From: a virus
IMG/VR virus record: IMGVR_UViG_3300045988_043056
Direction: 5' to 3' (one strand)
DNA: 43,022 nucleotides
The position numbers and the translations under genes were made by a program. Below are positions 4,365 to 38,222 of this stretch, in pieces; position 1 is the first letter of the stretch, and each line of letters starts with the position of its first letter. The notes under the pieces were generated by a model. It saw only the letters and a list, made by a program, of their open reading frames with translations. It ran no database searches and was not told where the DNA came from.

Positions 4365-4742
4365 ATGAACGAACGTATCAAGCAACTGCGCAAGCATCTC
4401 GGCCTTAATCAAACGGAGTTCGGCGCTCGCATCGGCGTGAAGCAAACAACCATTGCCGGATATGAGCGCGGCGCAAGCACTCCTCTCGACGCAGTTGTTT
4501 CAGCAATCTGCCGCGAGTTCAATGTCAGTGAGCGCTGGCTGCGTGAGGGCGAGGGCGAGATGTTCCTCCCGCAGGACGATGCCGACGAGCTGATGGCCTT
4601 GGCCGGTCGCTTCCTCGGCAGCAATCCGACCGAGACGCAGCTGCGGTTTGCCCGCGCTGTGTTCACCATGACCCCGCAGGAGCTTGAACTTATCACGCGC
4701 AAAGCCCGCGAACTTCTCGGTGAAACAAAAAAAGAGGACTGA
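4365..4742 (+). CDS. CI-like XRE-family repressor
   Basis: I place the start at ATG 4365 behind AGGAGGTGA. MNERIKQLRKHLGLNQTEFGARIGVKQTTIAGYERGASTPLDAVVSAICREFNVSERWLREGEGEMF is an HTH_3 domain, followed by a C-terminal extension. It is divergent from the early promoter. Confidence 0.85.
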   Translation: MNERIKQLRKHLGLNQTEFGARIGVKQTTIAGYERGASTPLDAVVSAICREFNVSERWLREGEGEMFLPQDDADELMALAGRFLGSNPTETQLRFARAVFTMTPQELELITRKARELLGETKKED

Positions 4743-11324: not shown

Positions 11325-11375
11325 ACTGAACACCTCTTTTCTGTGTCCAGTATGGCATATTTCCGTTTTCATTGT

Positions 11376-11419
11376 GGGTCACTTAGGGGTCATTTAGGGG
11401 TCACTTGCGGGTCAACTCC
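11376..11419. repeat. 11-bp tandem repeat x4 (GGGTCAYTTRS)
   Basis: GGGTCACTTAG, GGGTCATTTAG, GGGTCACTTGC, GGGTCAACTCC. The last unit overlaps the stop codon (11412-11414) of the giant ORF. Confidence 0.9.
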
Positions 11420-20400: not shown

Positions 20401-22691
20401 ATATATTTGGAGATCAGCCCCGCATTCTCCGGGTCAACAATCGGGTTGCCGCCGAACAGTCCGTTCGTCCCGTATTCGATCAGGCCGCCCGCGATCAGCT
20501 TCACGGCCCGCTCCGGCATGCTCTTTCCCGCGTCCTCCGCTTCGCCGTAGCTGTTCAGCGCCGCGTTGGCCGAGATCAGCACGTTCGAGCTGTTTTTCAT
20601 CAGGTTCGCCATCTGTCCGGCAAACTTCGTGTAGCCGCTCACCCTTTTCTGTGCATTGGCAAGGCTCGAAGCGTACTTTCCCCCTTGGGAAAGCTGCGAG
20701 AGCGCCGTGTTCCCCGCGCTGATCTGCCCGGCTATCGCGCCCGCTGCGGCCATCTCCAGCGCCGCCTGCGTCAGGTCGCGCGTCATGTTCGCCGTGAACT
20801 TTGTGAATTTGCTTCCGTTCTGCGTCAGCTCCGAGGCGTACCGTCCCGCCTCGTACTCTCTCTGTTTTCCCGCCTGCCAGTCCTTGTTTTCGTAGTCTAT
20901 GCCCTGCTGGCCGCCCTCAACGAAGTAGTTTCCCACCGGATTTTCCGCAAGGCCGAACAGATTCAGCGTCTTGCCTGCCGCCTTTGTGAGATAGCCGAGG
21001 CCGCGCATAAGCACCTGCTCCATGCCGCCCGCGTATTTGGTCATCACATTTTCCATCGCGTTTACCGCGCCGGTTCCCGCCATGTCCGCATAGGTCTTTT
21101 CGTCGATCTTCCGGTACATTTCCAGTGCCGCCTGCATTCCGGCTTCGTTCGCGTTCAGGCCGTTTGCCTCTCTGGTCGCCCGCAGCTCTGCGGCATTCGG
21201 CGCGTCCGCAATCTGCTGCATGAATGCGTCATACTGCTCCTGCGTCATTTCCGTGTTGGCCAGATACTCCGGCAGCACCTCCTCGCTCAGGAACGTCACC
21301 GCTCTTCGCTCCGCGTCCGAGGTTCCCCAGTCTGTTCCGCCGTGGTCAAAGCCCATCTTTCCCAGCAGTTCATCCACCGGCGTGTATGCGATGTTCTCCC
21401 GCGTCAGATTTCCGCTCTGATACCGGAATTCCTTCATCGCGTCGCCCTTGCTCGGCAGCAGGCTCTTTGCCTCCTTGCGAATGTCGTCTATGCCGGAATT
21501 TGCCCACATCATGTCGGATTTCGGCAGGCCGGAAAGATACTCCTTCTTCCACTGCTCCACCTTGTCCAGCAGCGCCTCGTATTCGCTCTCCGTGCACTTC
21601 CCGCTGAGCGCAAGGTAATTCAGACGTTCGGCGATCTCCGTAAAGATTCCCGCGTGAATGTTCTGCGCCTGACTGTCCGACACGTCTCCGTGCGTGAATG
21701 CCTTCAGCTCCTCGAAGTCCTGCCGGATGTAGTCCTCGTGCTGCTGCACGGTCTGGTTCTGCCAGTCCGCCTTTTCGGCCTTTCTCTCCATGCCGGCCGC
21801 AAGCGTGCGTTCCTCCTGCTGGCCTAACCGGCGGTCGTAGGCCGAGCCGTATCCGGTCTGCACCTTCCCGTCCGCCGTGTATCGCGGCAGACGCATTCTT
21901 CCGCTGATCGCCACGTCCGGCATGGCCTTTCCGGTCAGCGGATTCGTAAGCTGTGCGCCCTTCGCGCTCGTCTGCATGTCCTCCAGTGCTTTCCGGTACT
22001 CCGCCATCTGCGTCATGAGCGTCTGCGCCGCAGGCGTGTTTTTCTTCTTCAGGTAAGCTTCGATCTCCTGCGCCTCGGTCAGGAGCGTCTGCGCCCCGCT
22101 GACCCACTGGTTCGCCCGCTCCGGCTCCGACATCCCCGCCGTGGTCTCCTGCGCCTTTTTGAAGTACGCATCCGCCTCCGTCTGGAACCGCGCAATGCCG
22201 CTTCCGAGCGCCAGACTGCCCTCGTCGTCCTCTTGTCCGTTCATTGCCTTCTGGTAGCGCTTGAGCTGCGTCTCCCACGCATTGAGCTGCTTCTGATAGC
22301 TCTGCGCGTCCTCGCCCATCACGTCCGCATAGCGGTTGAAGTAGTCGCGCTCCTTCTCCACGGCGCTGAGCATTGAGCGAACGCGCAGCTTGTAGCCATC
22401 GTTTCCCGAGCCTGCGCGATGTGCCTTGCTGAAGTAACCGTCCATTGTGCCGAACAGCGTTCCCATGTCCGTCTGCATCTGCGACCATCCCGAGGCGCTC
22501 ACGCAGCGCTCACGCTCTGCTTTCAGTGCATTTGCTTGCTGGCTCTGCATCTGCGCTTCATTTTTTCTGTACTCCGCCATGGTCGCCGGATAAGAAAAGC
22601 CGCCGGAGACCGCAGGGGTGTTCCCTGCGGTCTGCCGGTTTTCTTCTTGCTGCTTTCTGTATTCAGCCATTGTTTTCGGGTAGTTCATCAT
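11412..22691 (-). CDS. Giant 3,759-aa multi-domain virion-type protein (polyvalent-protein-like)
   Basis: A single open frame with ATGATG behind AGGGAGGAAAT. HExxH motifs lie at nt 19008-19022 (VLMEHELFHAKV) and nt 18120-18134 (LLHEIQHIIQKYEGF). A polyvalent-protein module lies at ~nt 17140-17600 (ILGSTGEVLQGLG...LNDPVLVLKS...VSAYVK...FVDKKR). A hydrophobic helix lies at nt 12911-12968. The ORF sits after the portal and a 341-aa protein. Confidence 0.85.
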   Translation of the reverse strand: MMNYPKTMAEYRKQQEENRQTAGNTPAVSGGFSYPATMAEYRKNEAQMQSQQANALKAERERCVSASGWSQMQTDMGTLFGTMDGYFSKAHRAGSGNDGYKLRVRSMLSAVEKERDYFNRYADVMGEDAQSYQKQLNAWETQLKRYQKAMNGQEDDEGSLALGSGIARFQTEADAYFKKAQETTAGMSEPERANQWVSGAQTLLTEAQEIEAYLKKKNTPAAQTLMTQMAEYRKALEDMQTSAKGAQLTNPLTGKAMPDVAISGRMRLPRYTADGKVQTGYGSAYDRRLGQQEERTLAAGMERKAEKADWQNQTVQQHEDYIRQDFEELKAFTHGDVSDSQAQNIHAGIFTEIAERLNYLALSGKCTESEYEALLDKVEQWKKEYLSGLPKSDMMWANSGIDDIRKEAKSLLPSKGDAMKEFRYQSGNLTRENIAYTPVDELLGKMGFDHGGTDWGTSDAERRAVTFLSEEVLPEYLANTEMTQEQYDAFMQQIADAPNAAELRATREANGLNANEAGMQAALEMYRKIDEKTYADMAGTGAVNAMENVMTKYAGGMEQVLMRGLGYLTKAAGKTLNLFGLAENPVGNYFVEGGQQGIDYENKDWQAGKQREYEAGRYASELTQNGSKFTKFTANMTRDLTQAALEMAAAGAIAGQISAGNTALSQLSQGGKYASSLANAQKRVSGYTKFAGQMANLMKNSSNVLISANAALNSYGEAEDAGKSMPERAVKLIAGGLIEYGTNGLFGGNPIVDPENAGLISKYITDLTDNETIRKIVSSKVFDRIGEGMEEVASAVAGAALDYALTGETDLTAKELVDEFTVGVLLSMVMSAPEDIVDLTARAKSYVQSKVITRFGKQAQSNLDVLYGTMAQYTAQYYAGDENLMRFNGWSESQIKKAKGEWNTIVREFNTLADRLESAQNISESFERYTPPQANGGFVDVEMQNIIRAEQQSNAALMTDRALDIQIITQRATIEALRGSTDATDIFVAESAQSYLDVLDAEKSARAAERAQRAAESAAQENIPTAEQTAQETPQAAQETDQSAAATVEQAEEINAPAAQETEGGMSNEQSQSVNENQERNERVGAEGQTGGVVESGSRIAADRGGTGEAGGNESENLRRQKLNERVERFKGTVLDTGMDKLTADGDPDVMVGIVPVRKYTQAMKQAQREAKEQGVKTTFVVGTMSIKGEDGEYHNTDAMFDAESGRIFVSVSSIYEPEVLMEHELFHAKVHAAEIDLVTALESVSENMTAEEYTEIVEQYMKAYRGAYDSDTAVYEEILADAYAGLNRFANRSFKKLIDAMRTHAAGMQSQRESNAPTAEVSQAVRRTQDSDGNEKTAREGGKRASMAGPKAKTASSKNLALAEAMEEDGASREEIWRKTGWIRGADGQWRFEVDDSKAEFRPNGDARLLGEPRYRRLEELTDKWGDSFEKGGEPLTEAEEAEMEALQEEYSDRVWEKKYELQDFLKHDELYEAYPLLRHTTLRFEKLDPGVKGKFDKRSNAIVLSDSLFGKGPETLLHEIQHIIQKYEGFQGGTSPEYWARRDYESGDRLQERLQREYSDILNGLTKEEQNDYIRYQEIDGELERLFYSEKPGDTEKYDRMDAEHDRLYEKLYPNEWFGKLIDLKRQMENPGEVYLGQYINSAGEIEARETASRRNLTAEERKNKMPDLGWNRALLTEDGEGTSKVQLSVDNPEGFAEAITQWDADGRRKTDFILGSTGEVLQGLGAIESDVYMRSEKIETILKQHPEMSLEEIKKIPSVLNDPVLVLKSRQSDSKRGNSRVVVFGSMKNTNGAPMLAVLDLRPVEGNLLIEDMQKVVSAYVKTGNPAGFLKNSEAMFVDKKRAARLLRSTGLQLRPGSLPPSGYIGSITYRGKNVNITGKQFSEFLQETKETGNENLTTIRNLNEDDLEVLYGSARIPVQELLTNTEGAGDVSLIVKNEDARNNNAHLENMAAVIPSSVDWWLVERLKMNGLNVVEYRAGNEQARQEAEADAEKLLEPKKRFSLSPEEKVQRAENKLTAAQEKLEQEKEKAQERYKRDLTSGMRRLFNIQSYDSKELNGLLETPMLEMQQGVKLLKAEKDDLFEAVMNLGTETMPADDYYREIRDTIYGQKVFVPEWVRTEFGDDWNSFKKRAMGRHKFYFVEDEGKQGIDQLYKELAEQYPGAFPGTYDMTEMLRRMEDMADKGMDTKLPYRQAMEENEKRFGLKREEQLEYQRQEFEKLLNRYEKQAGAEAREARARTETDERLESILREADGVQPTKKAEGVVEPWTISEAAAQKRGFPFLNGKQVYPLRTWVKAADMGNYGLVLDKSTKKGMLTVLFTNKETGLSSVKDMETKLLTAVEPKYQPSVQETAALLASMPPEKLEDAADAEDLGAFYEWYDGQTEGRETNDLRPVAEERAEKSRQAAQEIEKQRGESALEEQEAYEQKKAERIEGIRKAYLESFGTTEPKLPYGKDRPMQSRFTTLQPGEALSLLQAMTGTKWALTNNADGTWKATMTKDPAPKTSISPKEALERLEAAKKTYGQQIPGVHPEGIAKENFKGSPALEKAGVKIDGGIADYGQVETMRKGAETRRSVKWQIDKTIQRMEATKQEIRAAKKIAQGKQEYYRLPDKCRPEVVSQLSALYLNERMTGEDLIQVRKSEIRDGLFYKMMELFPTENEIMANPELFKAEKLLVLNYRTALRSMVNIFGEERGMEIYNYLFAPVIRNTAESYRWTNQQFDDVKEFTDSSGKKSRLNETERAYVHMMLDVEGYVEKAERSDRGDILKDAAKKVAKGESISNETIEFALNSEEAKIVEKYAQWINGKDTEGIDKKKCENAMQEYRKKFDLYFEAINDFLVAHGMQPIGRIQGYTPHMPLAEKFNLMSKALEVLGLNETVTTLPAEISGRTEGFRPQRRWNPFLLERKTDKTAYDIEEAFQSYVQYLSDILFHTDDIQKVRAAESYLRKGLRGNFVDDLQKAIDMSRSSDAEEKIEYLQEMGQIGADDYDLSDAEMMQVFDRLISELVGEETNKTRYSPLVVWLKNYGDILAGKQFGGDRGTEYGGGREWLNIGNKLVGAFAKANVAGNLSSVLNQSAQLAMLQATRSQRAILKATQEFCTGKLGEFRKEIDFLTGKKGIDYLVQSGTDKFISGMFAPAEFMDSMLSTIATRAAYWDAIRNGKSHEEAMRFADWYGRALMGDRTKGAKPLKFHSKGVVVQMLNVFQIEPLNTVEFVTQDMPLEIKREAREHGKKSAARMLLRTIFGYLIAAFVLNRLTDELYGGTPAPLDIAGLTANFFASGKGLPTNDYIKNLINKVVGSEIFDVQKPKEGFDTSAAIKDTGYNLMNEIPFASNLSGLLGVGDRSMPFPNIFGTGKNFYDALFPGNGKSANGQEVLEKGLEFLAELVPGGRQAKKTGYGIKAIAQGGKTKGYGDNERLLYALDTDNVWNDIRTVLFGTNATPEANRYYAGDSYGLNADQTKLWKELRDEGVNGYALYGLMMRMDDAMNYSDIPEPKDDESEEEKAKRLQQKEEHRKKARAELAAQEGLTDGQRMRIYSAMVESGKNDAIDKLLDAGMKWKNISEILDKRGELKAGKTESEWAAEFASWLDGKKYSGKNREAINEALVPQSASFYNKMTAAGVGKNSAIKIEEIARKAAKADGKNFSEAYQARAVAQAGLSENEAYKALCAIYSDGTAEKFKEAHEAGIPAKEYTKFWLAQAELESDRDEDGEFISGSKREKVIELIDSLSLTAEQKDWIMGQKYKSYDWWMMPWS

Positions 22692-25831: not shown

Positions 25832-27343
25832 TTAAAATGGGTTTCCCCAAAGTCTGATCAGCTCGGCGCGCTCTGCGTCGCCCGCTGCGTAATAGTCCTC
25901 CCATTGGTCGTCGTGCCACCGGGCTTTCCTTCCCTCCGGCTCTGCAATGCGCGTCTCCTGCTGGTCCCGGATGTAGTAGGTAATTGCAAGCGCCATCACG
26001 CAGTCGTCGTGCGCGCCCTCTATCGCCTCCGGCCGTCCTTTTTCGTTTCTGGCAAAGGTCAGCATTTCCTGCAGCGTGTCCTCGTCGTCCACCAGTTCCG
26101 GATGCTCTCGCATAATGCCCACCAGCCCCGCGATGATCGTCGGCCTTGTCAGCCGGTCGGTGCGGAAGCCGTAGGACATCTTCACTTCCTTCGTGATTCT
26201 GTCCTCCACCTCTCGCAGATAGAGCTTCGGGTATTTCAGCCGCTGCAGCTCCTTTGTCGGGTGCGTCGAGAAGTTGATCTCTATCCCGATAAGCGCGGTG
26301 TTGTAGTACATTCCGAGGCAGTAGAGATTCCGCGCAAACAGATCCTCGTCCGTCCTCGTTCGGTACTTTGCCACGAGCCGCCCCGTGGCATTGTCTATCA
26401 CCTGCGCCACGAACCAGTCGCAGCCTTCGCCCGCCGTGTCCGCGCCGATCACATACGGGTGTCCCTTTTCCGGCCTCCTGTAAATGATCGTCTCGCCCGC
26501 TGCGTCCTCGCGGAATTTCCAGCCCGTCACGGCAAGCTCGTTGTAGGTGTAGTCGAACTCCCCGCGCGTCTCCGGCTTTCCGAGGTTCTGCAGCTTCTCC
26601 ATCAGGATTTCGCGGTTGAAGATCGTCGCCGAGAGCACGCCCCACTGTCCAAGGCAGTACACCTGATAGTAGTAGGGGTCTGTCTCCTTCATGGCCTCCA
26701 GCGTCAGCCTGTCCTCCTCCGGCAGGAACCGGTTGTCCGTGTATACGCTCTTGTGCGTCAGCACGCGCGGGTCTTTCCGGTCAAAGAAGCGCTTTTTCAG
26801 CCAGTGCGTGATGCTGATGGGGTTAAACGTCAGGATGATCTGCTTGTAGTATCTCGTGTTGCCGCGCAGTCGGATGTCCAACTGGTTAAAATCCTGTTCC
26901 TCGATCTCCGTGGCTTCCTCGATCCAGATTCCCGTGATGTTGTAGATGGACTTCAGCTTTTCCGCGTCGTCCAGCCCCGCAAAGATGATCTCCGAGCCGT
27001 TTTTGAATTGCAGATACATGTCCGAGCCTTTCCCCTTCGGGATTTTCTCGATCATCTCCGGATACAGCTCCTGCGCCTGCCGCTTGAGCTGGTCAAAGCA
27101 GCTTTCCCGCAGGGTCTTTGCGACCTTCCGCACCACCAGAAAGCGGTGCTTTTCCTCCGTCGCGCAGCGGTCTATGATCTTCTGACCGGCGAAAATGCTC
27201 TTTCCCGAGCCGCCGCCGCCCATCAGCACCAGGTGCTTGTGCTTGTCAAAAAGCAGCGGCAGGAACTTCTCGTTCATGATCTCCCGCATTTTCTTGAACC
27301 ACAGCATTGCCCGATATTGCTCTTCTGTGATCTTCGCCTTCAT
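25832..27343 (-). CDS. terL: Terminase large subunit
   Basis: I place the start at ATG 27341-27343 (ATGA overlap with the upstream stop). MKAKITEEQYRAMLWFKKMREIMNEKFLPLLFDKHKHLVLMGGGGSGKS contains the Walker A motif. A nuclease-half pattern follows (GADTAGEG...DWFV...DDCVMALA). The ORF-track N-terminal extension has no RBS. Confidence 0.9.
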   Translation of the reverse strand: MKAKITEEQYRAMLWFKKMREIMNEKFLPLLFDKHKHLVLMGGGGSGKSIFAGQKIIDRCATEEKHRFLVVRKVAKTLRESCFDQLKRQAQELYPEMIEKIPKGKGSDMYLQFKNGSEIIFAGLDDAEKLKSIYNITGIWIEEATEIEEQDFNQLDIRLRGNTRYYKQIILTFNPISITHWLKKRFFDRKDPRVLTHKSVYTDNRFLPEEDRLTLEAMKETDPYYYQVYCLGQWGVLSATIFNREILMEKLQNLGKPETRGEFDYTYNELAVTGWKFREDAAGETIIYRRPEKGHPYVIGADTAGEGCDWFVAQVIDNATGRLVAKYRTRTDEDLFARNLYCLGMYYNTALIGIEINFSTHPTKELQRLKYPKLYLREVEDRITKEVKMSYGFRTDRLTRPTIIAGLVGIMREHPELVDDEDTLQEMLTFARNEKGRPEAIEGAHDDCVMALAITYYIRDQQETRIAEPEGRKARWHDDQWEDYYAAGDAERAELIRLWGNPF

Positions 27344-29217
27344 CAATGGATCTCGCTTCCCTCGTACTGCTCCCGCGCCATCGCGTAGAGCCTCCACATG
27401 CCCGTGCCCGTGATCTTGATGCGGTAGTAGTCGCAGCGCGTCGGCAGGATCGGGATCTGCACGCTCCGTTTCCTCCCAGCCTCCATCGTCCACAGCGGCT
27501 TCCATGCGCCTCCGTCATACCGGATGCTGATCTGCACGCTTGCGCCCTCCTCCAGCTCCATCCGAAGCTGCAGCTTGCTCACGGCCTTGCGGTTCAGCGT
27601 CCCCGCCGTGAAGTCCCCGAACTCCGCGAAGCTCTCCACCGCCGCCGTCTCCTTCGTGGCCGGAGAGAACATCCCTCCGTCTCCGATCAGGTCAATCACG
27701 CCGTTGCCGCCCTGCTCGTCGATCTTTATCAGTCCATAGATCGTTCCCTGATCGTAGGTCATGCAGAACAGGTTTTGGTCGTCCTCCTTCATCCACAGGC
27801 CGTGCTTGCTGTCATAGCAGTAGATCGCCCGCTCTCCGTCCACGGTCATCTGCGCATAGTACCGCGTCCCGTCCGAGCACGCCATCACATGCTCGATCTT
27901 TCCCGTGCCGAAAACGCTTGTCTGGCTCACCGGGTACTCGTCCGCGTAGATCATCATGCCCTCGCGGGAGAGATACAGCAGCATGCCGCCCGCTGCGGCA
28001 ATGCTCTCGTGCTCTCCCGTTTTCACGCCCGGCATCGCAATCTCCGAGACTTGGAAGGTCTGCGGTGTCGCGCCGTAGATGCGCACCATCGCGTCCTCGC
28101 GGAAGAACGTCGGGTATCCGCCGTAGCTCACGCCGCCGGTCAGTTCGCCCTTTTTCTGCGTCGCAAGGCTCCATGCGTCCGTGCTCAGGCCCTCAAACAC
28201 GTTCCAGTTATTCGGGTCTCCCAGCTTGCTTGCATAGATGGTCTTTCCCTTTGCGCCCCAGAGGCGGTTGTCATGCTCAAAGCAGAAGTCCATATCCGGT
28301 ACGCTCCGCTTCAGTGTCACCGTGCCCTTAATTGTGACCTCCGTCACCGGCTCCCCGTTCTCGCCCAGCGGCATTTTGAAGCAGTTGTCCGAGAAGAACA
28401 GCACGCCGCCCATACCGCTTTCGCGCACGCCTGTCACAACCGCCGTCTTGTCGTTTCCCGGCGCTTCGGTCAGCCCTGAAATTTCCAGTCCGTCTCCGAT
28501 ATGAATCGCAGCGAGCAGATCCTCTGTTAGTCCGTATCCCTCGCTATATCCGGAAAAAGAAGTGAACGACAGAGCATTGGCCGTCGCTTTCTCCCCGTAT
28601 ACGGTTCCGTCCTCGATCTTCACTCCCGAAAGCTGAAACGTTGCTTCCATGCGGGTATAAAGCTCGTCGATGTACTTCCATTCCGTTCCTGTCCACTGGT
28701 ATAATTTCTGCTTGAGACCTTCCTGCAAGGAGCGAATCTGCCCCTTTTCTGCTTCCGTCAGTACCGGGAAGTCGCTTTTGCTGCTGATATACCCCTCGAT
28801 TTTGTACTGTGTCTTTACCACGATTTTGTCCGGCATCAGGATCAGGCGATTGCCGAAGCGCACCATCTTCACCTCGTGGACATCCTCCGAGATATAGACA
28901 TTTGCCGTTCCGCTCCATGCCGTCGATCTCATGACCATTCTTTTCTTTCCGCTGCTGAGAGGAAGAATCAGCACATACCAGATTTCCCCGTTGTCCGCAT
29001 AAATTCCCGGATATCGTGTTGAGCTGCTGTTATTCCCTTGCAGGGCAATCATCCGTTTCTCCCTCGGCTGCAGGATCGGGTACTCCCTGCACGTCAGGTT
29101 TTTCATATCGTAAAGCTCGCCGTCTCCGCATGAAAGGCTGTGACGCAGACCGCCAAAGGCCACCTGCGTTGTCTTTTTGATCTTGTCCTCGTACTTCATG
29201 CTTGGCAGCTTGCTCAT
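27343..29217 (-). CDS. Large beta-rich virion (tail/adaptor?) protein, 624 aa
   Basis: Translationally coupled on both sides (ATGA overlaps). The repetitive beta-strand-like sequence suggests a propeller or sandwich fold. I recognise no family. Confidence 0.6.
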   Translation of the reverse strand: MSKLPSMKYEDKIKKTTQVAFGGLRHSLSCGDGELYDMKNLTCREYPILQPREKRMIALQGNNSSSTRYPGIYADNGEIWYVLILPLSSGKKRMVMRSTAWSGTANVYISEDVHEVKMVRFGNRLILMPDKIVVKTQYKIEGYISSKSDFPVLTEAEKGQIRSLQEGLKQKLYQWTGTEWKYIDELYTRMEATFQLSGVKIEDGTVYGEKATANALSFTSFSGYSEGYGLTEDLLAAIHIGDGLEISGLTEAPGNDKTAVVTGVRESGMGGVLFFSDNCFKMPLGENGEPVTEVTIKGTVTLKRSVPDMDFCFEHDNRLWGAKGKTIYASKLGDPNNWNVFEGLSTDAWSLATQKKGELTGGVSYGGYPTFFREDAMVRIYGATPQTFQVSEIAMPGVKTGEHESIAAAGGMLLYLSREGMMIYADEYPVSQTSVFGTGKIEHVMACSDGTRYYAQMTVDGERAIYCYDSKHGLWMKEDDQNLFCMTYDQGTIYGLIKIDEQGGNGVIDLIGDGGMFSPATKETAAVESFAEFGDFTAGTLNRKAVSKLQLRMELEEGASVQISIRYDGGAWKPLWTMEAGRKRSVQIPILPTRCDYYRIKITGTGMWRLYAMAREQYEGSEIH

Positions 29218-29482: not shown

Positions 29483-30493
29483 TTAAAGACTGCTGCCGAA
29501 GCTCAGGCCGCCCGCCGCAAAGCAGCGGAAGTCCACGAATGCGCCGGTGTATCTTGCTCTGCCCTTCCAGACGTTCGCATCGTTGTGCGCGATTTCGCTG
29601 GTCACGGTCAGATCCTTGCGCATCAGGTCGATTGCGCCTTCGTAGCGCTGGTTGAACTGGCTGTCCATCAGGATCCACGGCGTGTTCGTGCTGCCGGCGC
29701 AGTACTGGTTCAGCTCGTTCCACACGAGGACGTTCCACGCGCCGAACAGGTAGTTGAACTTGTTGCCCGCTGCGGTCGTCGGGTCGTTGTGTGCACCCAG
29801 CACACCGAAAACCGCTTCCTTGATGGCAGCGTCATTCGGTATGATGATGGTGTCCGGGTTCATCACCAGCATGTTGCCGTTGTCGTCGTAGAAGTTCTGC
29901 ATCTTCGTGGCCAGCTTGCCCAGCGCGGTCGCGCTGAACGCGTCCGAGAACGCATTGCACTGGTTCGCGCCCTTGATCTTGCAGGCGTGCGCCGTCGAAA
30001 AGAGCTTTGCTCCGTCTGCCGTGGTCGTCTCAAAGCTGAAATTGCCCTGCTTGTACGCCGCCTGATTCTTGATTGCCGCACCGAGCAGACCCGCAAAGAA
30101 CTTGCTGCGCCCGCGATGGTACGAATCGATAAAGTTCTGCGGCTTGCCGACGAGGACGTTGTCCATCTTGTCCTCCATCATCTCCTGCGAGATGGAGAAG
30201 CTGCCCTTCCACGTCACGGCGGTCACGTACTTTTCATAGAGCTGCTCCGTGCTGCTCTGCGGGTATGCGCCGTTTTCGCCCACAGGGTCAAAGGAATCCG
30301 TTGCCCCTAAGCCGGTAAAGGCCTCGGTGTGGTGCGTGGAGTTCACGCGCTTAAAGATCTTTGCGGCAATGTTGCTCTCGTCGTGCATCCATGCCTCGTC
30401 TCTTCGTTCCAGGAACGCCGCAATCGGGGCCTGAATCTCGCCGTATAGCGCCTTTGCATTGTTGCTGGATTCACTCAGGATAATCTGTGCCAT
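29483..30493 (-). CDS. Major capsid protein
   Basis: 336 aa, directly after the scaffold and decoration-like genes. Size and composition are typical of HK97-fold capsid proteins. It has a strong RBS (AAAGGAGAGATGAAAC) before the ATG. Confidence 0.75.
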   Translation of the reverse strand: MAQIILSESSNNAKALYGEIQAPIAAFLERRDEAWMHDESNIAAKIFKRVNSTHHTEAFTGLGATDSFDPVGENGAYPQSSTEQLYEKYVTAVTWKGSFSISQEMMEDKMDNVLVGKPQNFIDSYHRGRSKFFAGLLGAAIKNQAAYKQGNFSFETTTADGAKLFSTAHACKIKGANQCNAFSDAFSATALGKLATKMQNFYDDNGNMLVMNPDTIIIPNDAAIKEAVFGVLGAHNDPTTAAGNKFNYLFGAWNVLVWNELNQYCAGSTNTPWILMDSQFNQRYEGAIDLMRKDLTVTSEIAHNDANVWKGRARYTGAFVDFRCFAAGGLSFGSSL

Positions 30494-30521: not shown

Positions 30522-30938
30522 TTAGCCGCCGCCTGTGGCCTTTGGAATGCGCGGGAAGCGCACGAGCATCTTACCGCCCGCTGCCGTGTCCAGCGCCTCC
30601 ACCACTTCCACGGCGGTTCCCGCCGTCGCGGTGATCTTTGTGCCGGTCGTGTCGATGGTCAGCCGGCTTCCCGCCGCTGCCGAGGTATTTGCTACGGAGT
30701 TTTCCGTCTCAAACACCGTTTCCTCGTCAACCTTGATGCACGGGATCACGTCGCCAGAGGCAACCGTGCCCTGATACATGCCGATGTACTCCGGCCGGTT
30801 GTCACCGGTACACTTTGCCAGCTTGCCGCCGGAGAAGTTCAGCGCCTGACCGGGCTTGATGCTGCCCAGTGCGCCCGCCTCCTTGTACTCCCACGGTGCC
30901 GGCTGGCCGTCGGCGTAGCTATAAGGGATAAATGCCAT
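30522..30938 (-). CDS. Putative head decoration / capsid accessory beta-protein
   Basis: I place the start at ATG 30936-30938. 138 aa, G/T/A-rich beta-type sequence, lying between the scaffold and capsid genes. Confidence 0.45.
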   Translation of the reverse strand: MAFIPYSYADGQPAPWEYKEAGALGSIKPGQALNFSGGKLAKCTGDNRPEYIGMYQGTVASGDVIPCIKVDEETVFETENSVANTSAAAGSRLTIDTTGTKITATAGTAVEVVEALDTAAGGKMLVRFPRIPKATGGG

Positions 30939-30949
30939 TTCTTTTAACC

Positions 30950-31858
30950 TCACTTTCTTTTCCGGTAATCGCGGGCGATTTCCTCGTCCGTGATATCGGG
31001 ATTAAATCTGCGGTACATCTCCTTTACCTGCTGCGGCACCACAAGCGCCTCTGCCTGATTTCCGGGTGTACCTCTCATGTGCGCCTGCGACATTGCGGCG
31101 TTTCTTGCCCGCTGCTCTCCCGCTGCGCGGTTTTTCTGCATGATCGCGTCAAAGTTTGCGGTCTTGTACGCCTGCACAAAGCTGCATCCCTTGCGCACCA
31201 GCTCTGCAAAGTCCGCGCCGGTGTCCATGCGGATGATGTCGTCCAGCGTCTTGATCTCCGGATTGAGCCTCCGGATCTCCGCCAGCTCCATTTCCCGCCG
31301 CGCCGTAAAGTCCTGTACCTCGGCGCTTTCCTGCGACTGCTTTGCATTTTGCAGGATTGCCTGCATCTCCGGCGAGGCCATCACCACGCTCTGCACGACC
31401 TCCGGGCTGAGCTTTCCGGCCTTCAGGTCCTGCTCTGCCTTGGCCTGCAGCTTTGCCTGCTTATATGCCGTGAGCTGCTCCATCGTCGTGACCGGCTGAC
31501 CCGTTTTCGGGTCCTTCAGTCCCAGCAGATTGAGAATCTCGGCGGCAGCGTCCTGCCGTCCCTTCTGCTCTGCCTGCTGTTCTCTGCGGTGGCGCTTCGC
31601 GGCCTCGCTTTCCTTGCTCGGCTTGTCCTTCCCCTCGAGTTCCTGCATGTCCGTTTCCGGCTGCGTCTCCCCCGACGGATTCCCATTGTCCTCGGCTGCC
31701 GGTTCGGTGACCTCCGGCGCATTACTACCTGTGTCCTCCCCCTGCGCGGGTTCGGGCTGCTCCTCGGCCTGCGCTGCCGGTTCGGTGACCTCCGGCTGAT
31801 TGCTACCTTCTTCCGGCTCGGGTACGCCGAAAAGCGCATAATATCGGTTTTCTGCCAT
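30950..31858 (-). CDS. Scaffolding protein
   Basis: An acidic, P/E/Q-rich N-terminus with an internal duplication is followed by a long helical charged region (AEQKGRQDAAAEILNLLGL...KQAKLQAKAEQDLKAGK). It lies immediately upstream of the capsid genes. Confidence 0.7.
   Translation of the reverse strand: MAENRYYALFGVPEPEEGSNQPEVTEPAAQAEEQPEPAQGEDTGSNAPEVTEPAAEDNGNPSGETQPETDMQELEGKDKPSKESEAAKRHRREQQAEQKGRQDAAAEILNLLGLKDPKTGQPVTTMEQLTAYKQAKLQAKAEQDLKAGKLSPEVVQSVVMASPEMQAILQNAKQSQESAEVQDFTARREMELAEIRRLNPEIKTLDDIIRMDTGADFAELVRKGCSFVQAYKTANFDAIMQKNRAAGEQRARNAAMSQAHMRGTPGNQAEALVVPQQVKEMYRRFNPDITDEEIARDYRKRK
31695..31796. repeat. 24-bp perfect direct repeat inside the scaffold gene
   Basis: GCTGCCGGTTCGGTGACCTCCGGC at 31695-31718 and 31773-31796, 78 bp apart. 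It encodes PEVTEPAA twice. Confidence 0.9.
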
Positions 31859-31895: not shown

Positions 31896-32033
31896 TCACT
31901 TCTTGCCGCCCGCTCTCGTTCTCAGGTCCGTGCCTCTGTGCACCTTGCCGCTGTCCTTGGTCTTGTGCTGATAAGCCGCCTTGACCTCCTGCGCACCGAC
32001 GTTTTTCACCTTGCCCTCATACGTCTTTTCCAT
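31896..32033 (-). CDS. Small basic protein (45 aa), below the ORF-track cutoff
   Basis: Hand translation MEKTYEGKVKNVGAQEVKAAYQHKTKDSGKVHRGTDLRTRAGGKK. A strong RBS (GAGGAGGTGAGAAGAA) precedes the ATG. It is the first gene after the P1 box. Confidence 0.5.
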   Translation of the reverse strand: MEKTYEGKVKNVGAQEVKAAYQHKTKDSGKVHRGTDLRTRAGGKK

Positions 32034-32067: not shown

Positions 32068-32100
32068 ATTTTCTCAAAGTCACCCCCCGAGTTACTTCCA
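32068..32100 (-). promoter_or_regulatory. P-box copy 1: TGGAAGTAACTCGGGGGGT, then GAAAAT (candidate late promoter)
   Basis: In minus sense, the 19-mer at 32100-32082 is identical to 36956-36938. GAAAAT (32073-32068) lies exactly 17 nt after ...GTAAC in both copies. The start codon follows 34 nt later. Confidence 0.55.
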
Positions 32101-32130
32101 ACATTCCGGCTTGACCGCCTGAATGTCGGG

Positions 32131-32178
32131 CGAATTGCATTTCTGCAATTCGGTCGCTGCTGGCACTTCCTTATGCCG
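32131..32178 (-). promoter_or_regulatory. X-box element copy 1: conserved 24-mer plus downstream hairpin
   Basis: In minus sense: CGGCATAAGGAAGTGCCAGCAGCG (32178-32155), then the hairpin CGAATTGCA, 4 nt, TGCAATTCG (32152-32131). The upstream hairpin is the terminator at 32181-32212. Confidence 0.6.
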
Positions 32179-32180: not shown

Positions 32181-32212
32181 ATAAAAATGCCCGGCGGGTC
32201 TCCCCGTCGGGC
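32181..32212 (-). terminator. Intrinsic terminator after the sigma-like gene
   Basis: In minus sense: GCCCGACGGG, GAGA, CCCGCCGGGC (one mismatch), followed by ATTTTTAT. Confidence 0.65.
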
Positions 32213-32218: not shown

Positions 32219-32467
32219 CTAATTCTTCATGCGCTTCTGCGCGATCTGCATCTTTTCCATGATCTTCGGCAGCCGACGCTTTACCGTCGCCTGCGCCAGA
32301 TACACCTCTGCCGCCACTTCCACTTGCGGCATCCGGTCGATGTAGTAAAGCCGCGCGATCTTTTCGTTTTCCTCGCCGATGTTGGCCTGCGCGATTACCC
32401 GCTCCATTTCGCCCTTGGTCAGCTTTTGCAGCGCGGGCGGGAAGCTGATGCGGGCTTGCGGTGCCAT
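32219..32467 (-). CDS. Sigma-70 region-4-like HTH regulator (candidate late activator)
   Basis: LTKGEMERVIAQANIGEENEKIARLYYIDRMPQVEVAAEVYLAQATVKRRLPKIMEKM matches the region-4 / ArpU-RinA-type pattern. Confidence 0.65.
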   Translation of the reverse strand: MAPQARISFPPALQKLTKGEMERVIAQANIGEENEKIARLYYIDRMPQVEVAAEVYLAQATVKRRLPKIMEKMQIAQKRMKN

Positions 32468-33249
32468 TACTTCAGAAGATATGTCCAGCTATTGCGGCCG
32501 ATGATGCCGTCCACGCCGAGGTTGTGCTCGGCCTGCATCCTGCGCACGCCCGCCTCCATCTTCGGCCCGAACAGCTTGTCCGTCGCGGGGATGGCGTGGG
32601 GATAATAGCCCTTGTCCTTCATCAGCAGCATGGCCGCGCGGACATCATTGCCGCTCATGCCACGCTTAAGCATTCTCAGTTCCATCGTGATCGTATCCTC
32701 CTTTTTCGGTTCTTTGGGTGCCGGTGTTACCGGCTCGTCCTTGGTGGCCTTGCTGGCGTAGTCGGGCAGGCCGAAACCACGGATGTACCGGCCGTTGACC
32801 GCAATCTCGCGGTATCCGACCGCATCATTTTTGTTGCCTTCAATGACGGTGATGGTCTTGCCGTCGCAGGCCACCACGATGCCGACGTGGCTTGCGCCGC
32901 CGGTGCAGTCTCCCACGCCATTGTCGCCCCATGCGTACATGATGACGTCGCCGGGCTTCGGGATGTAGCTGTCGCTCTCCTTCCAGCGCCCCAGACGCTG
33001 GTAGAGCTTAATCATCTCGCCCACGCCGACCTCCGTCGGCATGATGTCCGTCAGTCCGAGCCTGATTGCCACCGCCGACACAAAGCCCGCGCACCATGCG
33101 TCGGTGTACTTCAGCGCATACCCGCGTGCCAGCGGCCGGTGCGAGTTGTACACGTCCACGATCTGGCGGTGACTGCCGTCGGATTCTTTGCAGCCGAGCC
33201 ACGTTTTGGCGGTGGCTACGACTTTTTCTCTGATTTGTGCCTCTGTCAT
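32467..33249 (-). CDS. Endolysin: CHAP-type peptidase plus PG_binding_1 domain
   Basis: YTDAWCAGFVS carries the Cys and GASHVGIVVACDGKTITVIEGN carries the His/IEGN. A P/K/E linker follows. The C-terminus LKRGMSGNDVRAAMLLMKDKGYY...FGPKMEAGVRRMQAEHNLGVDGIIGRNSWTYL is a peptidoglycan-binding repeat. Confidence 0.9.
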   Translation of the reverse strand: MTEAQIREKVVATAKTWLGCKESDGSHRQIVDVYNSHRPLARGYALKYTDAWCAGFVSAVAIRLGLTDIMPTEVGVGEMIKLYQRLGRWKESDSYIPKPGDVIMYAWGDNGVGDCTGGASHVGIVVACDGKTITVIEGNKNDAVGYREIAVNGRYIRGFGLPDYASKATKDEPVTPAPKEPKKEDTITMELRMLKRGMSGNDVRAAMLLMKDKGYYPHAIPATDKLFGPKMEAGVRRMQAEHNLGVDGIIGRNSWTYLLK

Positions 33250-34155: not shown

Positions 34156-34440
34156 TCAGATCAGCCGCCCCAGCAGCGCGCCCACCAGCACCGAGATCAG
34201 CGCCGTCACGATTGCCGTCACCACGCTGTCCCAGCGCTTCGCGGGCTTTCCCAGCAGCTTATCGACGTTGGTTTTGATCGTCGATACGTCGCTCTTGGTG
34301 TGCTCCATGTCCTTTTGCAAGCCGCAAATCGCCGTCACCAGCTTGTCCTGCTCGTCCACGCGCTTTTCCAGCCTGTCCATCCGGTGCGTGTTGGATTTGC
34401 TCCGCTGCTCGTTCTCGATCACCTTTTCTTCAATCTCCAT
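34156..34440 (-). CDS. xhlA: XhlA-like lysis-associated protein
   Basis: A coiled-coil N-terminus (HRMDRLEKRVDEQDKLVTAICGLQKDMEHTKSDVSTIKTNVDKL) is followed by a C-terminal TM helix (WDSVVTAIVTALISVLVGALLG). It lies directly upstream of the holin. Confidence 0.7.
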   Translation of the reverse strand: MEIEEKVIENEQRSKSNTHRMDRLEKRVDEQDKLVTAICGLQKDMEHTKSDVSTIKTNVDKLLGKPAKRWDSVVTAIVTALISVLVGALLGRLI

Positions 34441-34467: not shown

Positions 34468-36357
34468 TCAGCTCACATAGAGGTAAAACCTCCGTGTGAT
34501 TGCCGAGAGCATTTTCACCGTCACAACTCCGGCCGAGGTCACGGTCAGCGTCGCGCGATAATAGTCCCCCGCTGCCGCAATGTAGATGTTCCATGTATCC
34601 GCCAGCAATGGGAAGCTGCATGTCTGGAAGTAGTTTTCTCCGCTGATTTCCGAGCCGATCAGCACATGCACCGTATGATACACGCTCATGTCCGCCGTAC
34701 CGCTTACCGTCCCGTTTTCGGTCAGCGTCTGAACGTCCAGCAGCAGCCACCCGACACTTTTTGCCGGTGTGTACCCCAGTGCCGCCGTGATTGCAGCCTT
34801 CGTCACGGTTGCATCCGTGCCCGGCTCTCCTTGCGGGCCTTGCGCGCCGGTCTCACCCTTCGGCCCCTGATCTCCCTGTGGTCCTTGCGCTCCTTTCTCG
34901 CCCTTTGCGCCGGTCTCACCCCTCGGCCCCTGATCTCCCTTCGGGCCTTGCGCGCCTGTCTCGCCCTTTGCGCCGGTCTCACCCTTCGGCCCCTGATCTC
35001 CCTTCGGTCCCTTGATGTTGACCGGTGTCGGATTTTCCAAGCCTCCGTCGTTTGTCCACGAGATCACGCCCGCTTCGCTCACGCTCGGGGTGAAGGTCGT
35101 GCCCGGCTCCCCCGCGCCGCCTCCGCCCGATGTCACGCCGATGTTGCTCCGTGCCTGTGCTTTCTGCGCCTCCGTCAGGGTCTGCGGCGTGTACTTTACG
35201 GCATCTGCACCGGCATTCTCCCGCGCCTGCTGCGCCCAGTGTTTGGCGTTGTTGTGGTAGGCCGGGTCGCTCTCCGGCACTTCCGTTCCGTTTCTCTTGC
35301 CGACCGCCCAGCTCTCCGCGTCCTGTGCAGAGAGCGCCGCATTGCTCGCTGCATTTTCCGCCGCGATTCCCTGCTGCTCCGCGCTGGCCGCCGAAAGCTG
35401 CGCACCGTTCTCTGCCGCCTCTGCCCCTGCCTTTGCCTGCACGGCATCTGCCGCAGCGCTCCCGGCTGTCCCCGCCGAGGTCTGTGCGGCACTTTTGGCC
35501 GCTTCTGCCGCCGCCTGTGCGCCCGCTGCGGCCGTGGCATAGTATTTCGCATTGTTGTGGTAGGTCACATCGTCCGCGCCTACGTCCTGCCCGCGCATCT
35601 GTCCGGTCGCCCAGCTCTCCGCATCATCCACATGCTGCAAAGCGCCCTGCTCGTGCTGTCCGGCTTCCAGCGCATCGGCGCTTGCCGACTGTGCCGCAGC
35701 CTCCGCCGCCGTCTTTGCCGCCTGTGCCGCTGCCGTGGCCGTCGCTGCTGCCTGTGTGGCCGTCGCTGTGATTGTCTCCTTGGCATTCTCCGTGATCTCG
35801 TCCTGAATGTTCTGCATGTTCACGAGGTCTACCCACTCCGCCGAGCCGTCCAGCGCCCACTGGATTTTCTTGCCCGCGTACTGCATCTTGGTTGCTTTGC
35901 CGTCTGCACCGTGCAGAGATGCAAGCCACTGCTCCTCCGTGCCTGTGTAGCCGTGCTTCTGCGCAATGGCATAGGCCGACAGGTAGTACTGCTTCAGTTC
36001 CGCGCGTCCGTCCGCCGGGGCCAGGACCTCCGCCACATAGTGCACATACTCCGTGTATGTCGCGTTGAACATCTGCATGCTGTTCTGGTACTTCGTGTAC
36101 TCGCCGTTTGCGTAGTCGATCTGTGCCAGCACATACTGCGTGTAGAGCTTATCGTAGGGGAAGGGTGCCGTCAGCTCTGCCGTCGGCAGGCTGCCGTCCG
36201 CTCCCAATGCAAAAGGCTCGATATCCGCCACGGATACCAGATGCACCTCGCTTAAAACCATCCCCTCGCACTCGCTCACCCACATCAGCAGGATCTCTTT
36301 GTCAAACGCCGGCGGCTTGAGCGTCTGCACCAGCTTGATCAGCTTGTCTACTTTCAT
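34468..36357 (-). CDS. Tail fibre / receptor-binding protein with a collagen-like triple-helix segment
   Basis: It contains A/S/E-rich fibre repeats with AESWA...YHNNAKYYA and AESWAVG...YHNNAKHWA motifs, 21 Gly-X-Y triplets, and a ~110-aa C-terminal beta-domain. The RBS is GAGAGGAG. Its 5' end overlaps TerS by 56 nt. Confidence 0.75.
34819..35010. repeat. Collagen-like GXY coding repeat (21 triplets) with near-identical DNA sub-repeats
   Basis: [64 protein letters not shown]. The DNA unit CGCCGGTCTCACCC(T/C)TCGGCCCCTGATCTCCCT recurs three times. Confidence 0.9.
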
Positions 36358-36901
36358 CGCTTTGCTCCTCTCCCGGTATGTCCATCTTTTTCAGCTCTGC
36401 CAGCAGCTCCAGCTTGCGCTGTGCGCTCTGCGGCTTGATCGCCTCCCGCGTCTCCCTGTCGAGGCTGATTTCCTGCCGCTCCTTCCAGCCGCAGTTATGC
36501 TGCAGGGAAAACTTCGCGCCCGCTGCCGAGGACTTTTCCAGCACCTTCCCGGCCAAAAAGTCCTCCACGCGCCCCCGCGCACGCTCCACCGTGTCGGCAT
36601 ACGCCTTTTTCTTCCCGTACTCCGCCCATGTCGAGCGGTGTATACCCAAAAAGAGGCACAGTCCCGCCATGCTCGGCTTCTTGATCCACAGCTCCTCGGT
36701 CGCGGGCGTGCCGTCAGCGGCCACCGGCCGGACGAATTTCTTCTTCGGGTGTCCGAAGGCATCCAACTCCACCAAAAATGTCCCGTCCGGCTGCTCCTGA
36801 TAGGCTATTTCCGCAAGGATAAGCGGCCGCACCACGCGGATTGAATCGAAATACTTATCCACCGCCTCCGCCAGCTCCTGCGGCTTGTATCGCTTCTGCA
36901 C
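36302..36901 (-). CDS. terS: Terminase small subunit
   Basis: GTG start behind [76 protein letters not shown] is the typical TerS (gp3-like) HTH core. Confidence 0.85.
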
Positions 36902-36923: not shown

Positions 36924-36956
36924 ATTTTCGCATCCCTACCCCCCGAGTTACTTCCA
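36924..36956 (-). promoter_or_regulatory. P-box copy 2 (candidate late promoter of TerS)
   Basis: In minus sense: TGGAAGTAACTCGGGGGGT (36956-36938), then GAAAAT (36929-36924) with the same 17-nt spacing as copy 1. The TerS GTG follows 22 nt later. Confidence 0.55.
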
Positions 36957-36969
36957 CTTTCTTCGGCGG

Positions 36970-37004
36970 AAAAAAATTCAAGCGCCGTCCGTGTGGGCGG
37001 CGCT
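36970..37004 (-). terminator. Intrinsic terminator after the regulator gene
   Basis: In minus sense: AGCGCCGCCC, ACAC, GGACGGCGCT (one mismatch), then TGAATTTTTTT. It starts 1 nt after the stop codon. Confidence 0.7.
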
Positions 37005-37005
37005 T

Positions 37006-37281
37006 TTACCATCTCTCGTAGATTTTCTTTCGCATCCTGCACAGCGTCTGGATGCTCACATAGTGCTCTGCGCTCACGCGCTGCACGTCTGTACCGTCAT
37101 GCAGCAGCCAGTCCCTCAGGGCGCAGATGTACGCACGGTCGCCGCCTGCCGCATCAGCGATCAGGCGGTCGATCCGCTTTTTCTGTTTTTCCCCCGCATC
37201 GTCGTAGTTGACGAGTGCAAAATAGATCTGCCCCTGCTTGCGGTATGGGATCCGCAGTCCTCGCTGCATCTTAAAGCCCAT
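37006..37281 (-). CDS. Sigma-like / HTH late regulator (start uncertain: 37281 or 37269)
   Basis: LRIPYRKQGQIYFALVNYDD...VQRVSAEHYVSIQTLCRMRKKIYERW has a C-terminal region-4-like HTH. GGAGG lies 5 nt before ATG 37281. Confidence 0.6.
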   Translation of the reverse strand: MGFKMQRGLRIPYRKQGQIYFALVNYDDAGEKQKKRIDRLIADAAGGDRAYICALRDWLLHDGTDVQRVSAEHYVSIQTLCRMRKKIYERW

Positions 37282-38155
37282 ACCCGCCTCCCGCTTTCCG
37301 CGCCTCCCGCTTTTTGGGCACATAGCGTATGTACTGCACCACCGTCTCCGGATTGTACTCCGAGCGTTCCATAATTTTTGCGCCAGCCGGGGCCTTGATC
37401 TCTGGATTTCCCAGCACCTCGCGCTCCGTGATCTCCGGCATCAGCATGCCGCGGCTCACGGAGTACTTTTTCGCATCCGGCTGACGGCGTACCTGACGCA
37501 TCAGATACACGGCTATCGGCGTGTAGTCCTGCTGGCCTCTCAGTCTGCGGATGTCCACAGAGCCGAGCTTCCACTGCTTTTGCAGCATGTCCCAGGAGAT
37601 GCCCTCCGCCGCCAGCACCAGATGATGGTGGATGCGCACCACCTCGCCGGTATCGCCGTCGATGTCCGATGTCACCGCGATGTACTTCACGGCCTGCTGC
37701 CGCTTCACTCTGCGGAGCCATAGATTCATCTGCTTTTCCGCCGCTGCGCGCAGCCTTGCGCATGCTTCTTCCGTATTCTCGTAGGGGTCTATGCCCACAT
37801 CGACCCGTTTCTCGCACTTCTTCGCGGCTTTCCACTCTCCGATCTCCGCTTTCTGCATGCCGAGTGCCCAGAGCTTTTCGCTTTCCGTCAGCCCGGCTTG
37901 TGCGCAGAGCTTTTCCATCCCCGCCGGATCGTAGTCCAGGGTGACCAGAATCCCGTTTTCGTGGTCGAAGTTGCAGTTCAGGAGGCGCGCCACTCTCCGC
38001 AGGGCAGCGTTGAAGTTTGCCTCCTGCTTCCGGAAGCTCGTGTTTCCCTTCTTCCGAGAGGATCGAGGGCGTGCGTTGTCGCGGACCGGGTATCTCGTCC
38101 GCTCGACCACGCCGTTTTTGCACAGATACTTTCGCTCCATGATCTTCACTCCCAT
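37271..38155 (-). CDS. HUH-superfamily rolling-circle replication initiator (Rep)
   Basis: Motif I-like ILVTLDY (nt 37931-37948). HUH motif VRIHHHLVL (nt 37613-37636). Tyr motif DYTPIAVYLMRQ (nt 37493-37513). Confidence 0.7.
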   Translation of the reverse strand: MGVKIMERKYLCKNGVVERTRYPVRDNARPRSSRKKGNTSFRKQEANFNAALRRVARLLNCNFDHENGILVTLDYDPAGMEKLCAQAGLTESEKLWALGMQKAEIGEWKAAKKCEKRVDVGIDPYENTEEACARLRAAAEKQMNLWLRRVKRQQAVKYIAVTSDIDGDTGEVVRIHHHLVLAAEGISWDMLQKQWKLGSVDIRRLRGQQDYTPIAVYLMRQVRRQPDAKKYSVSRGMLMPEITEREVLGNPEIKAPAGAKIMERSEYNPETVVQYIRYVPKKREARKAGGGYGL

Positions 38156-38202: not shown

Positions 38203-38222
38203 GATACGCGCGCGCGCGTATC
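38203..38222. promoter_or_regulatory. Perfect 20-bp palindrome GATACGCGCGCGCGCGTATC with an alternating CG core
   Basis: It lies 48 nt upstream of the Rep start, flanked by a T7/A7 run. Confidence 0.7.

Follow-up and report, generated by a model that had tools for sequence, protein, structure and literature searches.

Among the late activators of the Ltr type in Gram-positive temperate phages are RinA, ArpU, LtrA (Sigma70_r4), LtrB (DUF1492), LtrC and the Alt protein of TP901-1 (PMC3753634, PMC3152322, PMC13123087). In the published layout of an Ltr locus, the regulator gene is followed by a terminator, an operator, a -10 element and terS, and the position of last early gene before terS has been assigned to late transcriptional regulators (PMC3753634, PMC13123087). 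A second kind of promoter that invites comparison is that of the ECF (group IV) sigma factors, which carries AAC in the -35 element and a -10 element of the CGTx type (PMC5758882, PMC1540707).

We analysed a 43,022-nt stretch of viral DNA (IMG/VR record IMGVR_UViG_3300045988_043056; hereafter, the window), which by appearance is a complete temperate phage genome of ~43 kb. Its plus strand carries a repressor gene (4311-4742), further helix-turn-helix (HTH) genes and an integrase gene (7350-8399); a gene for an NYN-domain (RNase-like) protein (5677-6348, plus strand) lies among the repressor-type HTH genes of this lysogeny region. The early genes of the minus strand start at a Cro-like gene (2937-3230) and apparently run across the window ends to a methylase gene, a rolling-circle Rep-like gene (37271-38155) and the gene for a small protein, ORF91. 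Two late operons follow, and the genes of interest are listed here in the order in which they would be transcribed:

37006..37281, minus strand: ORF91, 91 aa, basic (pI 9.7), with a C-terminal HTH; last gene of the early/replication block
36302..36901, minus strand: terS, with a GTG start; first gene of late operon 1 (Pfam GP3_package, 2.7e-13; phrog_606)
34468-36357, minus strand: collagen-repeat tail fibre gene, late operon 1
34156-34440, minus strand: XhlA-like gene, late operon 1
32467-33249, minus strand: CHAP endolysin gene, late operon 1
32219..32467, minus strand: ORF82, 82 aa, basic (pI 9.9), with sigma-70 region 4 only; last gene of late operon 1
31896..32033, minus strand: 45-aa ORF, first gene of late operon 2; its homologues head the capsid operon behind the second box of a sister genus (see below)
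30950-31858, minus strand: scaffold-like gene, late operon 2
30522-30953, minus strand: gene between the scaffold-like and capsid genes, late operon 2
29483-30493, minus strand: major capsid gene, late operon 2
25832-27505, minus strand: TerL gene, late operon 2

In full, late operon 1 encodes TerS, the fibre, the XhlA-like protein, two small proteins, the CHAP endolysin and ORF82, and late operon 2 continues after the capsid gene with an internal virion protein, TerL, the portal protein and a giant protein of 3759 aa. TerL had been expected to follow TerS; the collagen-repeat tail fibre gene occupies that place, and TerL belongs to operon 2. The terS (36302-36901) and terL (25832-27505) genes are thus ~9 kb apart in separate operons, with the tail fibre gene and a lysis cassette between terS and the head genes, an order that the sister genus shares minus the CHAP lysin and ORF82. 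The giant protein is encoded by a single ORF (11412-22691, minus strand) with coding-like GC3 at the end of the structural block.

A preliminary description of this DNA had pointed to an identical 19-mer in front of TerS and of the capsid operon, each copy followed at a fixed distance by GAAAAT. We refer to these elements as P-boxes; their parts and the hairpins that precede them are as follows:

36970..37005, minus strand: terminator-like hairpin with T-run between ORF91 and P-box 1 (RNA fold and sequence)
36924..36956, minus strand: P-box 1, conserved 5' of terS in three clades, in clade B with GATAAT
36956-36946, minus strand: P-box 1 core, TGGAAGTAACT, at about -39 to -29
36945-36938, minus strand: P-box 1 G-run, CGGGGGGT
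36937-36930, minus strand: P-box 1 variable spacer, AGGGATGC
36929-36924, minus strand: P-box 1 -10-like hexamer, GAAAAT
32182..32212, minus strand: terminator-like hairpin with T-run after ORF82 and 5' of P-box 2 (RNA fold z = -3.6)
32068..32101, minus strand: P-box 2, retained by every relative in front of the 45-aa ORF, scaffold and capsid genes
32101-32090, minus strand: P-box 2, a T and the core TGGAAGTAACT
32089-32082, minus strand: P-box 2 G-run, CGGGGGGT
32081-32074, minus strand: P-box 2 spacer, GACTTTGA
32073-32068, minus strand: P-box 2 -10-like hexamer, GAAAAT

Two exact copies of the 19-mer, TGGAAGTAACTCGGGGGGT, are present on the minus strand of the window (36956-36938 and 32100-32082). 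Scans allowing up to three mismatches gave no further copies in the window and none in 100 shuffles, relaxed-pattern scans of the window found no extra P-box, and we estimate that ~0.003 exact same-strand 19-mer repeats would arise by chance per 43 kb. Both boxes read GTAAC-N17-GAAAAT with the same spacing, and the 8-nt tails of their spacers are unequal (AGGGATGC in box 1 versus GACTTTGA in box 2). From the end of GAAAAT in box 1 (36924), the GTG start of TerS at 36901 is 22 nt on; from the end of GAAAAT in box 2 (32068), the ATG of the 45-aa ORF at 32033 is 34 nt on. The preliminary description was therefore accurate in all three respects: exactly two copies in front of these operons, a constant distance despite differing spacers, and start codons 22 and 34 nt further on.

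When the -10 hexamer is set at -12 to -7, GTAACT falls at about -34 to -29 and TTGGAA at about -40 to -35. The element accordingly combines AAC in a non-canonical -35, a fixed spacing and a -10 of the form GAWAAT. The identity between the two boxes of the genome spans about -40 to -21, a shared stretch that suggests a footprint of ~20 bp overlapping the -35 position. Each box stands in the same order of elements, namely a small ORF, a hairpin with a T-run, the box and an operon. The purine-rich DNA just 5' of the core is loosely repeat-like, with an inconsistent spacing of 9-10 bp.

This arrangement bears on the idea that the 19-mer is not a transcription signal but serves in packaging (as a pac site), in recombination or as an RNA element. 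One copy does lie beside terS, a frequent location of pac sites; the second, however, is far from the terminase genes, and the idea is weakened by the presence of two copies, both intergenic and both set at a constant distance from an RBS and a -10-like hexamer. The window has no Rfam match, the surroundings of box 1 fold no more stably than shuffles (z = -0.7), and the structured DNA 5' of box 2 belongs to a variable insert, missing from several relatives in which the box is kept. We consider a role of this kind extremely unlikely; most likely, the 19-mer would be the upstream half of a duplicated phage late promoter.

We located relatives of the phage in IMG/VR and metagenomes by exact and degenerate pattern scans and by protein-anchored searches. 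About a dozen relatives were found; the phages come from human-gut metagenomes, with one relative inside an uncultured Clostridiales genome bin, and a megablast search of INPHARED with the 9-kb region gave no match. These genomes provide independent versions of box 1 (clades A, B and L200) and of box 2 (clades A, B and L004). Across clades A, B, L004 and L200 the core TGGAAGTAACT is invariant, a G-rich octamer comes next, and the -10-like hexamer is GAAAAT or GATAAT (GAWAAT) at an unchanged N16 spacing. The 8 nt preceding the hexamer take five unrelated forms across the relatives (among them the box 2 spacers TGATGCGG and AAACCTGA), insertions and deletions are frequent in the stretch from terminator to box, and the upstream DNA drifts. 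Clade B has gained two opposite-strand genes in the interval that separates ORF91 from box 1, with the box itself left intact. All this points to a bipartite DNA signal kept by selection, and not to a recent duplication: core, spacing and hexamer are fixed, and the spacer and flanks vary.

Two variable segments near the boxes deserve description. The clade B insert (L062 8316-8872, corresponding to L022 1761-2317) occupies the equivalent of window positions ~36957-37005; its genes have their own TTTACA/TATAAT-like promoter, and a 66-aa product carries a precomputed Pfam match to AcrIC5 (anti-CRISPR). The segment abutting box 2 (32101-32150, minus strand) is strongly structured (z = -4.8), with a hairpin, GAATTGCAGAAATGCAATTC, and an inverted repeat, ACATTC-N14-GAATGT, next to the box. 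Some relatives in each of the two clades have it, and others (L007, L010, L011 and L004) lack it but keep the box; the segment may be a small mobile insert or an optional operator.

A sister genus (ORF91 49%, TerS 41%, MCP 55% and TerL 70% identical to the window) has its own pair of boxes at both equivalent places, of the form TTGACGG(C/T)AACT-N16-TATCCT or TAAAAT. The two read TTGACGGCAACTAACACGGCT...TATCCT and TTGACGG(T/C)AACTAACACGGCT...TAAAAT and have TTGACGG(C/T)AACTAACACGGCT in common. Box 1 lies 12 nt past ORF91; box 2 is preceded by a terminator and followed by the scaffold and capsid genes, with the 45-aa ORF's homologue at their head. Per genus, the two boxes are alike over about 19-23 nt, whereas the spacer-proximal 8 nt differ between genera, as would be expected of a genome-specific factor acting in trans. 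In related phages of the L106 type, each contig carries their own promoter motif only once, so that a duplicated, concertedly evolving promoter is a trait of the window genus and its sister genus.

These comparisons make a further alternative very unlikely, in which each box is an ordinary weak promoter of the host, or a read-through junction, that works without any phage factor, and the two copies are identical through recent duplication. GAWAAT would be acceptable as a -10, and TTGGAA partly resembles TTGACA. However, the 22 nt between TTGGAA and the -10 exceed what sigma-A can span; the bases that never vary (GTAACT and 8 nt into the spacer) are not ones that sigma-A contacts; the copies match within each of the two genera while the genera are unlike each other; and a prophage would be harmed if its lysis genes were expressed constitutively. 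The lysogeny region is enriched in canonical TTGACA/TATAcT sites (11 versus 5.0 +/- 1.9 expected), which implies that the host sigma-A consensus is ordinary and that the P-box deviates only at the -35. The contrast drawn earlier with the TTGACA/TATAAT promoters of the lysogeny genes consequently holds for the -35 and fails for the -10, which is housekeeping-like (GAWAAT, and TATAAT in relatives). The earlier reading of the geometry as of the -35/-10 type gains support, since core, spacing and -10 hexamer are kept in several clades and in the sister genus; the motif was likewise found 5' of terS and scaffold genes when we looked for it in related phages.

The preliminary description had flagged two genes, 37006..37281 and 32219..32467, as potential sources of a phage factor. 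We compared both with known regulators and asked what DNA accompanies their homologues. ORF91 has no match in Pfam, PHROG or NCBIfam and no significant match to any characterised regulator; PDB profile searches with the small proteins returned only weak TrfB/KorA and GerE matches, and the AlphaFold model of ORF91 is poor (pLDDT 53). An exhaustive profile search defined a family of 167 clusters at 50% identity, nearly all of ~90 aa, with a conserved N-terminal half (FK.RG..PY..QG.IYFT.NY) and a C-terminal HTH. Two of 103 members match RinA (TIGR01636), weakly (1.2e-3). Without exception, genes of this family are found after the replication genes and ahead of terS or terL; in the window and 8 distant loci the gene comes after a Rep gene and before terS.

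We scanned for promoters 3' of ORF91-family genes in 44 clusters sampled out of the 167, the loci having been found with sub-alignments of the family. The motif G(T/C/A)AACT-N15-17-(TAnnnT or GAWAAT) occurs in 12 of the 44 clusters, convincingly in 9, against 0 on the reverse strand and a mean of 1.07 (maximum 5) in shuffles. Examples 3' of the homologue are GGTAACT-N16-TACAAT in L076, TTGATAGTAACT-N16-TATAAT in L259, GATAACT-N15/16 followed by TAGAAT or TATAAT in L245, L250, L251 and L255, and TTGACGGCAACT-N16-TATCCT in the L207 group. Another subgroup has TTGnnACTC-N19-TAnnnT with a spacing that is invariant in 8 lineages; this form is absent from a subgroup with a different recognition helix (STLER). 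The N16 motif is thus found in about a fifth of the family's clusters, and other subgroups show other downstream architectures. For the 'TLYR' subgroup the register relative to the window box is ambiguous, as the two can be aligned on TTG (N22) or on ACT (N16 versus N20), and our conclusions on the distant motif rest on the N16 group and not on this subgroup. The earlier proposal of a phage-specific late promoter class is supported both by the conservation across clades and by the recurrence of the same design in these distant phages.

ORF82 matches phrog_36 and, across profile positions 116-162 of 165, TIGR02937 (E=9e-8), with weak matches to RinA, Pfam Sigma70_r4 and GerE; the Sigma70_r4/ECF region 4 match is below curated cut-offs. 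Its structural model is weak (pLDDT 70), and a fold search gave nothing significant, with KorA and ECF region 4 at E>1 only. Outside the HTH, a profile comparison of ORF91 with ORF82 reached no significance (E=0.0023, probability 12.6%), and the two are not taken to be homologues. Homologues of ORF82, in relatives and in distant phages, always lie behind the endolysin gene. A P-box was expected 3' of the distant homologues, but GAAGTGAT-type triple repeats stand there instead: these loci show a terminator, then 2-3 direct repeats of the GAAGTGATGCG type at a spacing of 11 bp, and then a -10 ahead of a conserved accessory gene. The window has an element of the same kind:

11349..11406, minus strand: ORF82-type three-repeat promoter-like element, conserved in clade A relatives
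11406-11400, 11395-11389 and 11384-11378, minus strand: direct repeats AAGTGAC, AAATGAC and AAGTGAC, 11 bp apart
11354-11349, minus strand: -10-like hexamer CATACT, N23 after the repeats

The first of these repeats begins 6 nt past the stop codon of the giant gene, and the gene 3' of the element (10938-11324) is 66% identical to the accessory gene that follows ORF82 homologues (L027).

It follows from these observations that ORF82 is unlikely to read the P-boxes, whether alone or together with ORF91, with ORF91 otherwise employed. Four points speak for ORF82: its match to sigma-70/ECF region 4; its gene directly 5' of box 2; the operator unit AAGTGAC/AAATGAC, one base off (AAGTGAC) the AAGTAAC of the box; and its presence in every phage with an exact P-box, all of which encode both ORF91 and ORF82. 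Yet ORF82 is a product of the box-1 operon only and would be unable to start that operon; it has a separate operator, of the form repeat-N23-TAnnnT, conserved with distant homologues that lack the box; the sister genus has both boxes, and no ORF82 or CHAP homologue was detected in its ORF91-to-TerL stretch (L265); and distant phages of the ORF91 family carry promoters of the box type beside ORF91 and not beside ORF82. Position, distant motifs, the sister genus and ORF82's own operator together assign the P-box to ORF91 and ORF82 elsewhere. Of the two flagged genes, 37006-37281 is therefore the likely regulator of the P-boxes, as judged from sequence comparison. ORF82 is probably not the P-box factor and is a candidate regulator of the promoter at 11.4 kb, with the three-repeat element (11406-11349) probably its true, predicted target. 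A sigma region-4-like protein, a terminator, repeats spaced by 11 bp and a -10 make up the classic Ltr operator design; unlike a terS promoter, the ORF82-type element is predicted to control accessory genes at the end of the late region, and it is separate from the P-box.

The preliminary description had favoured a phage-encoded sigma-like factor, and we considered more broadly whether an alternative-sigma promoter (read by a phage sigma, a two-subunit phage sigma or a host ECF factor) uses GTAAC and GAAAAT in place of sigma-A. The AAC of the -35 is typical of ECF promoters and the spacing of 16-17 nt fits them (PMC5758882), ORF82 is region-4-like, and the box is unlike the TTGACA/TATAcT sites of the lysogeny region. 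Nevertheless, a scan of roughly 40 ORFs of the window revealed no region 2 domain (no match to Sigma70_r2), the -10 elements of relatives are housekeeping-like (TATAAT, TACAAT, TAGAAT, GATAAT) and not CGTx, and the core differs between phage genera, which speaks against an unchanging ECF sigma of the host. The consensus sequences of sigma-54, sigma-H, sigma-B and sporulation-sigma promoters fit the box neither in spacing nor in key bases. An alternative sigma thus seems improbable here. Dependence on a phage factor is the part of the earlier proposal that gains support; a sigma-like nature of this factor is only half right. The absence of region 2 from the scanned ORFs and the housekeeping-like -10 make host sigma-A together with a small HTH activator likelier.

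Our preferred reading, with a probability of roughly 0.6, is that the boxes are two copies of one ORF91-dependent late promoter at which host sigma-A polymerase reads the -10; from the DNA and its comparison we infer the starts of transcription, the binding of ORF91 and the use of host sigma-A. The core TGGAAGTAACT and the adjoining G-run (about -40 to -21) would form an operator overlapping the -35 position, and GAAAAT, 16 nt past ...AACT, would serve as a weak housekeeping-type -10. ORF91 would bind the operator through its C-terminal HTH and recruit or stabilise host sigma-A RNA polymerase, which would read the -10. On this simplest model, such a protein would be a class-II-type activator, its place over the -35 making up for the missing contact of sigma region 4. 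Late operon 1 (TerS, fibre, lysis genes and ORF82) and late operon 2 (scaffold, capsid, TerL, portal and tail) would both depend strictly on ORF91, because each has a weak -10 and a terminator-like hairpin before its box. ORF82 made from operon 1 would then drive a third promoter (11406-11349) for accessory genes at the end of the late region, giving a putative three-step cascade from ORF91 through the late operons and ORF82 to the accessory genes.

The best reading of the system is that of an Ltr-type late activator and not a phage sigma factor. As in Ltr loci, ORF91 is small, basic, encoded by the last gene of the early cluster and directly 5' of the promoter that it putatively controls; a terminator separates the regulator gene from terS (here the hairpin and T-run at 37005-36970); a sigma-A-type -10 occurs without a usable -35 (GAAAAT/GATAAT here; TATAAT, TACAAT and TAGAAT in relatives); and packaging, morphogenesis and lysis genes lie under the promoter, here as judged from gene layout. 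Three departures from the Ltr scheme are new: (i) the protein family, since ORF91 is outside the RinA, ArpU, LtrA/Sigma70_r4, LtrB/DUF1492 and LtrC families; (ii) the operator, since known operators consist of 2-4 direct repeats upstream whereas the P-box is one ~20-bp site over the -35, 16 nt from the -10; and (iii) the duplication of the promoter, as a result of which the late genes fall into two operons. At the middle promoters of phage T4, the MotA/AsiA system works with a phage protein at the -35 box while region 2 of the host sigma reads a normal -10. The likeness to ORF91 is one of proposed mechanism; in contrast to T4, no AsiA-like partner was identified here, and there is no homology.

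The resemblance to ECF promoters extends to an AAC of the P-box type (GTAAC, GCAAC, ATAAC), a strict spacing of 16-17 nt and close adherence to a consensus. In contrast to ECF systems, the -10 here is TAnnnT/GAWAAT and never CGTx, ORF91 is half the size of an ECF sigma, and a region 2 protein is missing among the ORFs scanned. We tentatively entertain, as a doubtful variant, that proteins of the ORF91 family are free-standing surrogates of sigma region 4 that sit on the sigma-A holoenzyme or displace its own region 4. If true, such surrogates would give ECF-like -35 specificity (TTGnnnGYAACT) while sigma-A region 2 reads the -10, and gut Firmicute phages would then share a widespread means of splitting or appropriating sigma, unlike the activators that bind upstream repeats.

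An ORF91-dependent promoter would be a candidate switch for the late genes of a large set of uncultured phages of the gut, represented by the 167 ORF91-family clusters, with a group promoter consensus of TTGnnnG(T/C/A)AACT-N16-TAnnnT and a candidate regulator that is currently without annotation. It would extend the Ltr model to another protein family and another operator design, with one site over the -35, and would offer a genomic example of late genes split between two operons that are predicted to be co-regulated. The motif could also mark the early/late boundary and help to annotate ~90-aa 'hypothetical proteins' in metagenomic phage genomes.

Finally, a perfect GC palindrome, GATACGCGCGCGCGCGTATC, lies at 38203-38222, just 5' of the Rep-like gene; it may act as an origin of replication, as a nick site or in packaging. 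Similar palindromes of the form CGCGCG..CGCGCG are found in distant phages (L068, L070, L073-L075, L109 and L142-L156) 3' of the ORF91-family gene and ahead of terS, in many cases with 'gggcttggttagggcctaagt' next to them on the 3' side.
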